The notes under the pieces are model-generated. The model had not been told where the DNA came from. It made no database searches and was given only the letters and a program-made list of their open reading frames with translations. A stretch of DNA of 10,626 nucleotides. Origin: a virus (taxonomy: Duplodnaviria > Heunggongvirae > Uroviricota > Caudoviricetes). The position numbers and the translations under genes are program-made. Positions 2,955 to 3,783 of the stretch are shown here, in pieces. The stretch lies in the IMG/VR virus record IMGVR_UViG_2529292985_000036; one strand, given 5' to 3'. Each line of letters opens with the position of its first letter. Positions within the stretch are counted from its first letter, which is position 1.

Positions 2955-3783
2955 GGTTTACCCCCTTGCTGACTGGTTTAACCTGCGCCCTGACGTGATT
3001 TACGTGACGGGCGAATTTCTGCTCCCACTGAATCTGCGTAAACACTTTCCCCTCCGCTGCCCAGTAGTCCCGGAAGGCGGCAAGTTCAGCAGGTGTAAAT
3101 TCTGTCTCCGGCAAAGCCATCCCCCACAACGCAGCCCGTCGTCGAAAATCCCGTGACGGATACCAGCTATCGGTCATCGGAAATTTTCCGATGGGTTCGC
3201 TCAGGCCATCCAGGAATACAAGGGGTGCTGCCTGTAACGACAAAACTTCCTGCTCACTGGTCGGAGCACTCTCGCGTGCGTTATGTGTGGGGTTTAGATC
3301 TTTGGGTTCCTTTGGGTTCCGTGATCCGTTTTTGGGTGTCTTTGATGGAAAATTTGGGTGTCTTTGGTTATTTTCCATGCAGCTAAGAGTTCCGTTTTTG
3401 GGTCTGTTTTGTGCTGAAACATAACCATTTTCGGTACTGTTTTTATTAACAGCACCAATTTTACCCACCTTTAAAGACTCCCGTTTTTGGGTGTATTCAG
3501 GCTCGGCAACACTTTCTTCTACACCGATAAGTCGGTACACCACAATTTGCTTTGTTCTGCCTTTTCTCTCACCGGTATCAACAATTAACCCAATCTCCAT
3601 CAGGTGTCGTAAGCTGTCCTGCACAGTCTTTTTGTTTAGTTCCGTTACTTCTGCCAGTGCAGATACAGACGGGTATGCACACAAATCGGCACCGCACATA
3701 TCAGCAAGCCAGGTCAATACAGACTTACTGGATGAACTGCCGGTTTTCACCTTTTTAGCCCATCGTAGTGCATCGATACTCAT
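2743..3783 (-). CDS. Replication initiator, lambda O-like (N-terminal HTH, iteron-encoding linker, DnaT-like C-terminal region), about 346 aa
   Basis: ATG at 3783 (MSIDALRWAKKVKTGSSSSKSVLTWLADMCGADLCAYPSVSALAEVTE...); longer starts at 3846/3858 would overlap the upstream gene. PKNG-type repeats are encoded over the iterons. C-terminal FTPAELAAFRDYWAAEGKVFTQIQWEQKFARHV resembles DnaT-like domains. The 3' end overlaps the P-like ORF by about 210 nt, so the true C-terminus is uncertain. Confidence 0.7.
   Translation of the reverse strand: MSIDALRWAKKVKTGSSSSKSVLTWLADMCGADLCAYPSVSALAEVTELNKKTVQDSLRHLMEIGLIVDTGERKGRTKQIVVYRLIGVEESVAEPEYTQKRESLKVGKIGAVNKNSTENGYVSAQNRPKNGTLSCMENNQRHPNFPSKTPKNGSRNPKEPKDLNPTHNARESAPTSEQEVLSLQAAPLVFLDGLSEPIGKFPMTDSWYPSRDFRRRAALWGMALPETEFTPAELAAFRDYWAAEGKVFTQIQWEQKFARHVNHVRAQVKPVSKGVNHAAAPGGTASRAVQEIRAAREQWERENGFISDGNGLEAVGTHGGGLFEPLDPEERGRTFEALDCTDWRDD
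3290..3500. repeat. Iteron array (putative phage replication origin) inside the O-like gene
   Basis: Seen: repeated TTTGGGT-core motifs. tttgggttcc x2 tandem at 3301..3320; ccgtttttgggtgtctttg at 3326..3344; tttgggtgtctttg at 3353..3366; ccgtttttgggtctgtttt at 3392..3410; ccgtttttgggtgtattc at 3481..3498. Moderately AT-rich stretch at 3420..3470. Analogous to lambda ori within O (established knowledge). Confidence 0.6.

Follow-up and report, generated by a model that had tools for sequence, protein, structure and literature searches.

A predicted lambda-type replication origin inside the initiator gene of a lambdoid Escherichia coli prophage

Introduction

In phage lambda and the Shiga toxin (Stx) phages, the replication origin's iterons and its AT-rich tract are located in the middle of gene O, the number of iterons being four or six (PMC7466680). 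The lambda iterons cover amino acids (aa) 117-145 of the O protein, and the four of them fall into three reading frames. Here we describe an array of iteron-like sites in the replication initiator gene of a lambdoid (Rac/Qin-like) prophage of Escherichia coli, whose early region constitutes the IMG/VR virus record IMGVR_UViG_2529292985_000036; this whole stretch of 10,626 nucleotides (nt) is referred to as the window, and all coordinates refer to it. The array has dyad-symmetric sites and a constant position in the gene, is conserved at the DNA level throughout a family of initiators, and is linked to their N-terminal domain (N-domain). The segment 3292-3494, placed in the linker-coding middle of the gene as ori-lambda is in gene O, is very probably the initiator-binding part of the prophage replication origin.

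Among the closest relatives are the HTH_36-type phage initiators (phrog_1032 and its relatives): p43 of phiV10, the 'replication initiation protein' of epsilon15, gp76 of AP22, VaK_0038, gp11 of Bcep176, and ORF39 of EPP-1. They have the same N-domain, the same type of array and the same position of the array in the gene as the window; phiV10 in addition has the DnaT-like domain and the P-like protein, whereas EPP-1 and AP22 differ in the C-terminal domain (C-domain) or the partner. The Eru8 and Eru11 units of Stx phages, in which the order cI, YdaT-like, HTH_36 is that of the window, are likened to it by gene order. Fagerlund et al. (2022; PMC8951638) typed the Eru units by protein content only, with iterons unmentioned, and report that nothing is known about the replication proteins or the replication of Eru phages. 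Our literature search (by the motif, epsilon15/phiV10, Rac oriJ/ydaU, and HTH_36 together with iterons) found no description of HTH_36-family arrays as origins, with most subscription-journal papers outside its reach and an earlier description therefore possible; the 11-mer CCCAAAAACGG and its complement were in none of the motif matches listed, which were 10-mers only. The origin predicted in the window is an apparently undescribed member of a well-known type.

The repeat array

The elements of the initiator gene and its immediate surroundings are as follows.

2743-3783, minus strand: initiator gene, 346 aa (open reading frame (ORF) and translation; WP_000020541)
3499-3783, minus strand: N-terminal winged-helix domain, aa 1-95, the presumed reader of the iterons
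3292-3494, minus strand: iteron array of seven sites, gene nt 290-492, aa 97-164
3477-3494, minus strand: site I1, ACACCCAAAAACGGGAGT, full site, peptide YTQKRES, 19.3 bits
3440-3479, no strand: AT-rich stretch and candidate unwinding element, lowest-GC 40-mer (GC 0.30), between I1 and I3
3421-3438, minus strand: site I2, AGTACCGAAAATGGTTAT, within the AT-rich patch, full but degenerate, 15.7 bits
3388-3405, minus strand: site I3, AGACCCAAAAACGGAACT, full site, peptide RPKNGT, 23.5 bits, the best match in the window
3344-3361, minus strand: site I4, ACACCCAAATTTTCCATC, left half-site retained and right arm swapped ('TTCC type')
3322-3339, minus strand: site I5, ACACCCAAAAACGGATCA, full site, peptide TPKNGS, 17.5 bits
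3292-3319, minus strand: sites I6/I7, GAACCCAAAGGAACCCAAAGATCTAAAC, two overlapping half sites with the mosaic joint (3303) inside
2983-3183, minus strand: DnaT-like C-terminal domain, aa 201-267 (Pfam DnaT, 6.5e-17)
2288-2750, minus strand: lambda-P-family helicase-loader gene (Pfam Phage_lambda_P), disrupted

The sequence-only reading of this DNA had reported at least six repeats with a TTTGGGT core within the initiator gene. Indeed, there are exactly six copies of this heptamer, all on the plus strand (at 3301, 3311, 3331, 3353, 3397 and 3486, spanning 3301-3492; ACCCAAA on the gene strand), and no further copy anywhere in the 10.6-kb window; the Poisson estimate for this many copies in 192 nt of a single strand is P ~6e-16. 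The true repeat unit is longer than the heptamer, about 16-18 base pairs (bp), and forms four full and three partial sites in one orientation (minus strand). One of them, the degenerate I2, was absent from the earlier list; it is similar to sites of the AACAGTACC type, which occur in the L326/L347-type clusters described below. The variant class of I4 is likewise found in other clusters, e.g. L268, L129, L326 and L370.

The centre-to-centre spacings of the seven sites are 56, 33, 44, 22, 20 and 10 nt. They are close to multiples of 11 nt (phase concentration R=0.81 at a period of 11.0 nt), so the sites, each with its A-tract, would share one face of the helix. A repeat search of the window found no other repeat array and no 13-mer tandem repeats, and no Rfam family was found in or near the array.

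Conservation of the array in homologous initiators

A search of phage genomes by tblastn yielded diverged homologues of the N-domain, and repeat searches in six of them revealed the same motif several times at the same gene position, the phages being EPP-1 (Edwardsiella), phiV10 (E. coli), VaK (Vibrio), AP22 (Acinetobacter) and Bcep176 (Burkholderia); among these, phiV10, AP22, VaK and EPP-1 are deposited as complete phage genomes with the same arrangement. Three scans of IMG/VR added 236 further loci, representing 170 distinct genes, which fall into 41 clusters when grouped at 85% identity of the N-domain. A scan preceding these three, led by the N-domain of the window itself, had returned 80 near-identical E. 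coli loci, and diversity came only after the alignment had been re-ordered. Identity of the N-domain is 38-80% among the 41 clusters and 32-73% to the named phage proteins. The window N-domain is homologous to those of phiV10 p43, AP22 gp76 and VaK_0038; the N-domain alignments have 19 invariant columns, and the conserved DTGERKGxT wing is present. HTH_36 was found in every iteron-bearing homologue tested.

De novo repeat finding placed an array at gene nt ~270-520 in 40 of the 41 clusters, with about 3-8 sites of the consensus GTCCCAAAAACGGGAC, dyad-symmetric like the lambda iterons. The remaining cluster (L249) has at the same gene position a variant site of its own, GGTGCA-N4-TGCACC. Lack of conservation in homologous initiator genes had been named by the sequence-only reading as grounds for giving up its proposal; the array is kept in all 41 diverged clusters, including the variant one.

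An 18-nt matrix was derived without the window and its near relatives, from 166 sites of 33 clusters whose N-domains are less than 60% identical to that of the window. The matrix consensus, AGTCCCAAAAACGGGACA, comes from distant homologues only; the four best matches on both strands of the window are I3, I1, I5 and I2, all on the minus strand, the fifth-best match anywhere in the window scoring 8.8 bits. In shuffled windows the best score averages 10.6 bits, and its 95th percentile is 15.4. The arrays contain 197 sites that reach 10 bits or more, in contrast to nine in 101 kb of flanking DNA (both strands). With an array defined as at least three matrix-positive sites on the coding strand, beginning ~270-320 nt into the gene, the window has four, at gene nt 290-462. 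The dyad of the matrix pairs G2 with C17, T3 with A16 and CC at positions 5-6 with GG at 13-14 around an A-rich centre; in some family members the sites are perfect palindromes (GTCCCAACGTTGGGAC, GTACCAAAATTGGTAC). The flanks vary by lineage: ACACCC in the window, AGTCCC/AGTACC or GATCCC elsewhere. A correlation of these flanks with the N-domain sequence would be expected from common descent alone, both being parts of one DNA segment.

A separate contig scan with the pattern AAAACGG-N(6-36)-CCCRAAAACGG was poorly designed, about 1,000 chance matches being expected in 596 Gb, and was discarded; among the 120 loci listed, two encode the N-domain (L093 from Kluyvera, and L129). The latter (CAVJQJ010000021.1, in a Firmicute bin labelled Anaerovoracaceae) carries an N-domain homologue with 51% identity and a six-site array of the proteobacterial type, and may reflect either contamination of the bin or a genuine jump between hosts.

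Resemblance to ori-lambda and other origin elements

The array shares with ori-lambda and with the Stx phages 933W and P27 (6 iterons) the dyad iterons of about 18 bp with a central A-tract in one orientation. Common to them are also the location in the central part of the initiator gene, flanked by a DNA-binding N-domain and a partner-binding C-domain, the mixed reading frames, a nearby AT-rich stretch, and an early operon by cro with a lambda-P-family gene next to the initiator. The lambda site, TCCCTCAAAACGAGGGA, has the same dyad style as the family matrix (GTCCC...GGGAC) with longer arms. The window site is shorter (CCC-N6-GGG versus CCCTC-N5-GAGGG), and its seven unequal sites extend over 200 bp, whereas the four of lambda are tightly packed. 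The initiator belongs to a different family, with HTH_36 and a DnaT-like C-domain, outside Phage_rep_O; the P homologue is short (153 aa when intact). The lambda ori-within-O architecture suggested by the sequence-only reading is thus supported as a prediction of the origin by dyad iterons in one orientation, a mid-gene linker and a P-family gene downstream. Very probably this is a layout of the lambda type with an initiator of another family, which is expected rather than surprising.

The moderately AT-rich patch noted earlier at 3420-3470 coincides with a true dip: across 3400-3499, the GC content of 60-nt windows falls to 0.33-0.37. In the near relatives L242, L002 and L241, the lowest-GC 40-mer is found at the same gene position, nt 304-308. 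The AT-rich minimum falls directly after the last site in 19 of the 40 clusters, often with a GC content of 0.12-0.25, while the DNA downstream of the last site in the window has 52-58% GC and belongs to a swapped-in GC-rich DnaT module.

Directly behind the last iteron, many members of the family have a conserved sequence, ACAGAATCT (peptide G-T-Q-N-L), which in members such as L326, L416 and L422 is extended as GAATCTATCAATAGAATCTAAAAATAAAAA. In phiV10 three 12-nt tandem repeats, AACCAGTCATAT, stand after the last iteron. The loci with sequences of these kinds include L326, L416, L422 and L434 (gene nt ~440-500) and L003 (1810-1845). These sequences may be unwinding elements or module-boundary sequences.

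Iteron plasmids (RepA/pi/TrfA, and staphylococcal RepA_N) resemble the window in having a winged-helix initiator and repeated sites. In plasmids of the RepA/pi/TrfA type, the iterons are found outside rep and are usually accompanied by DnaA boxes and by 13-mer repeats for unwinding. In contrast, the sites of the window are inside the gene, tandem 13-mers are absent, and no DnaA box (TTWTNCACA) was found near the array; the sole match in the window, at 5731, is 2.2 kb away and at chance level.

Origin or control sites

Several observations weigh against the assignment of the array to an origin. The AT-rich stretch, which is the weakest part of this assignment, is only moderate (GC 0.30-0.35), partly overlaps a degenerate site, and lies inside the array, not downstream of it as in lambda and in the 19 clusters mentioned above. 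A sigma-70 consensus scan of 2200-5100 called no promoter. The P-like partner gene is frameshifted in the window. Two thirds of the family sites are in the PKNG frame, which indicates some constraint at the peptide level too. Finally, no experiment that demonstrates binding or origin activity for a member of the family was found in the literature searched.

The initiator-bound sites might serve mainly for control, replication starting elsewhere in the prophage. Control would mean autoregulation, an early-transcription roadblock, 'handcuffing' of copy number, or the exclusion of related phages through titration of their initiators. The weak and oddly placed AT-rich element of the window agrees with such a function, plasmid iterons are known to do both jobs, and inhibition of related phages by cloned ori-lambda fragments is described in PMC3349717 and PMC4488673. 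However, the array has the same position as in lambda, where the sites are the origin (PMC7466680), a strongly AT-rich stretch does directly follow the last site in nearly half of the clusters, and the array is the only one found in the window. We therefore regard a mainly regulatory array as improbable.

Nucleotide sequence versus encoded peptide

According to the sequence-only reading, the repeats were in-frame and encoded PKNG-type peptides. The first part of this claim fails: the six ACCCAAA copies begin 291, 380, 424, 446, 466 and 476 nt from the ATG and occupy all three reading frames. The second holds for two copies out of six, since the encoded peptides are, in the same order, TQKRE, RPKNG, HPNFP, TPKNG, NPKE and EPKD. 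Across the family, more than one reading frame is used by the sites in 34 of the 40 clusters; the xPKNG frame holds 134 of the 197 sites (68%), and the other 63, distributed over the remaining two frames, encode, for instance, TQKR or PTTE. The commonest spacings are 24, 18 and 17 nt, the last accounting for 25 intervals.

These mixed frames are the best evidence that the repeats act as DNA, for they imply conservation of the nucleotide sequence and not of the PKNG peptide. The opposite explanation, that the repeats are a mere DNA image of a flexible P-K-N-G linker and have no function as DNA, could draw on the majority of sites in the xPKNG frame and on the perfect in-frame tandem units of some members, such as the 5 x 24 nt of Vibrio VaK. 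It is at odds with the three frames and unrelated peptides of the window copies, with the mixing of frames in most clusters and a 17-nt spacing among the three commonest, and with the retention of the nucleotide core where the peptide changes. Moreover, the dyad symmetry has no coding reason, and initiators with other N-domains have the same kind of linker without the sites. A pure linker is thus largely refuted by the frame analysis, and we give it very little credence. As judged from the sequences, the frame preference yields a harmless flexible peptide, and the conserved entity is the nucleotide sequence.

The initiator protein

The initiator is named 'DnaT-like ssDNA-binding domain-containing protein' in RefSeq (annotation of NZ_CP029579) and matches phrog_1032, 'replication initiation protein', at 1.7e-90 (3.3e-38 for the N-domain alone). 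The array (aa 97-164) falls between a winged helix (aa 1-85) and the DnaT domain (aa 201-267). The Pfam match of the N-domain to HTH_36 is weak, 20.8 bits, under the cut-off of 25. In an AlphaFold2 model of this domain, with a predicted local distance difference test score (pLDDT) of 77, aa 1-85 form a winged helix of the topology H-H-b-H-H-b-hairpin; the model rests on a shallow alignment, as the search for homologues of the N-domain (99 aa) gave only 29 matches, mostly fragments. Foldseek matched the model to generic winged-helix DNA binders only, with template modelling (TM) scores of ~0.5, the RepA_N structures 4pql and 5kbj being among these weak matches. The C-domain matches the structures of the E. 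coli DnaT C-domain (6aep, 4ou6) at ~1e-18 to 1e-19 and, to judge from these matches, is clearly homologous to this domain of the host protein.

The database entries for the N-domain (P0001-P0004, P0011-P0029) include many fragments of 60-170 aa with unreliable names ('primosomal protein', 'HTH domain-containing, partial', 'pyocin large subunit-like'), and the gene calls for its homologues often stop in the iteron region or right after it.

The term 'O-like' that had been applied to the initiator is appropriate for its position and role, but not for its family. Membership in Pfam PF04492 (Phage_rep_O) was rejected, as the protein has no match to this family, for which lambda O scores 123 bits. 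Homology to lambda O was likewise dropped, the probability of 3% from hhalign with the N-domain alignment being too weak. The sole link between the two proteins is that both N-domains weakly match the O-like PHROGs 678 and 345.

Domain linkage and the mosaic joint

The array follows the HTH_36 N-domain regardless of the C-terminus: the C-domain is DnaT-like in only seven of the 41 clusters, and other C-termini and partners occur as well: EPP-1 has Phg_2220_C, and the gene that follows AP22 gp76 codes for a DnaB-like helicase. Conversely, YdaU of Rac-SA53 (DUF1376 and DnaT) and the initiator of TL-2011b have a window-like DnaT domain (72-87% identity) with different N-domains, and sites of the window type are absent from both genes. 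The DNA homology of the window with ydaU/ydaV of Rac-SA53 (89%) has its exact start at 3303, at the edge of the array and within the last half site; the window version of the shared sequence opens with AAAGATCTAAACCCC, that of Rac-SA53 with AAAGAATTAAACCCC. These comparisons indicate that the N-domain and the array are one module, and the DnaT domain and P another, an arrangement expected if the N-domain reads the sites.

The TL-2011b initiator gene has a repeat of its own, GTAACGCYRRCAGCGTTACAAAAGGAGT, a 28-nt sequence with a palindrome that occurs twice, 209 nt apart (L008 1262-1289 and 1471-1498); it may represent a different origin specificity.

That the array is chiefly a 'boundary sequence' for homologous module exchange, kept because mosaicism is useful, would fit the joint between the N-domain and the DnaT-P module at 3303 and the near identity of the core in phages of different hosts, but is hardly credible, since a recombination linker needs no dyad symmetry, phased copies, single orientation or adjacent AT-rich element, and exchange is expected anyway if the array borders two functional modules, as in lambdoid O genes.

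Proposed mechanism

Should the array be where the initiator binds the origin, the following order of events can be proposed. Early leftward transcription from a promoter on the Cro side would produce the initiator, whose winged-helix N-domain would bind the dyad sites of about 16 bp, probably as one dimer per site; the family consensus of these sites is GTCCC-AAAAAC-GGGAC, with ACACCCAAAAACGG as the form in the window. The ~11-nt phasing and the A-tract in each site make it possible that the sites lie along one face of bent DNA in an O-some-like complex; the sites themselves would then bend the DNA into a lambda-like wrapped complex. The AT-rich stretch at ~3440-3479 would open next. The DnaT-like C-domain would hold single-stranded DNA, dock the lambda-P-like protein, or both, and the latter protein would bring in the host DnaB. 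In short, binding, bending, unwinding, helicase loading and origin activity are predictions.

The P-like partner gene

The P-like gene lies directly downstream of the initiator gene, and its 3' ORF matches Pfam Phage_lambda_P at 7.8e-12 (RefSeq name 'replication protein P'). The suspected frameshift was confirmed as a single-base insertion: in comparison with NZ_CP029579, where the gene is an intact coding sequence of 153 aa, the window has one extra C in the C-run 2631-2635, a +1 frameshift. Of the 401 complete E. coli genomes with this segment of the P gene, not one has the allele, and the extra C is either a sequencing error in the homopolymer or an inactivating mutation private to this copy. 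Both the initiator ORF and the array are undamaged. With the P-like gene frameshifted, the module may not fire unless the partner is supplied in trans, while the origin itself is probably intact.

Prophage context

The segment 2200-4600 is 99.9% identical to NZ_CP029579, and at least a part of it is matched by 3,207 of 5,426 complete E. coli genomes; in the phage collection, prophages of the PPompW type match at 95.5%. By annotation and Pfam, the minus-strand genes follow, from high to low coordinates, in the order Cro-like, YdaT-like, initiator, lambda-P-family and DUF1627 gene. As judged from this gene order, early transcription would run leftwards through the array. The other features of the window are listed below.

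3755-5002: upstream early operon with the YdaT-like gene, the Cro-like gene and the divergent repressor (Pfam and annotation)
3755-4306, minus strand: YdaT-like gene (Pfam YdaT_toxin)
4290-4517, minus strand: Cro-like gene (Pfam P22_Cro)
4595-5002, plus strand: repressor gene (Pfam HTH_3), divergent from the Cro-like gene
6036-6087, plus strand: DicF antisense small RNA (Rfam RF00039, 76.7 bits versus a gathering score of 48)
6731-9205: exonuclease (annotation, Pfam)
9496-10626, plus strand: integrase, accompanied by an excisionase (annotation, Pfam)

The Cro-like gene and the repressor gene are separated by 77 bp, in which lies the palindrome TTGAGTTTTCTCAA (4530-4543), probably an operator. 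The DicF RNA adjoins a dicB region, the same as in the Qin prophage. The integrase ORF is intact in the window (376 aa, Arm-DNA-bind_1 and Phage_integrase) and is annotated as frameshifted in the otherwise 99.9% identical NZ_CP029579. Thus the window has an intact integrase and a broken P, and NZ_CP029579 shows the reverse.

Biological significance

The design described here repeats the known scheme of lambda; it fills a gap and overturns nothing. With it, a replication module that is very common among E. coli prophages but unstudied receives a probable origin and a DNA-binding specificity open to testing. The family-wide site consensus, together with the natural domain swaps, provides a framework for the prediction of phage origins and for tests of initiator-origin specificity.

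A broader generalization is conceivable, although we hold it only tentatively: the winged-helix N-domain and its CC-N6-GG array may form a portable 'origin cassette' in phages of Gamma- and Betaproteobacteria, recombined at the edge of the array with interchangeable helicase-recruiting modules (DnaT-like plus P, Phg_2220_C, or helicase-linked). Since phages of very different hosts have almost the same site core, the initiators of co-resident or superinfecting phages might recognize each other's origins. If the cassette is real, cross-activation, interference or exclusion between prophages could result, and it would bear on the uncharacterized YdaT/HTH_36 'Eru' units of the Shiga toxin phages.

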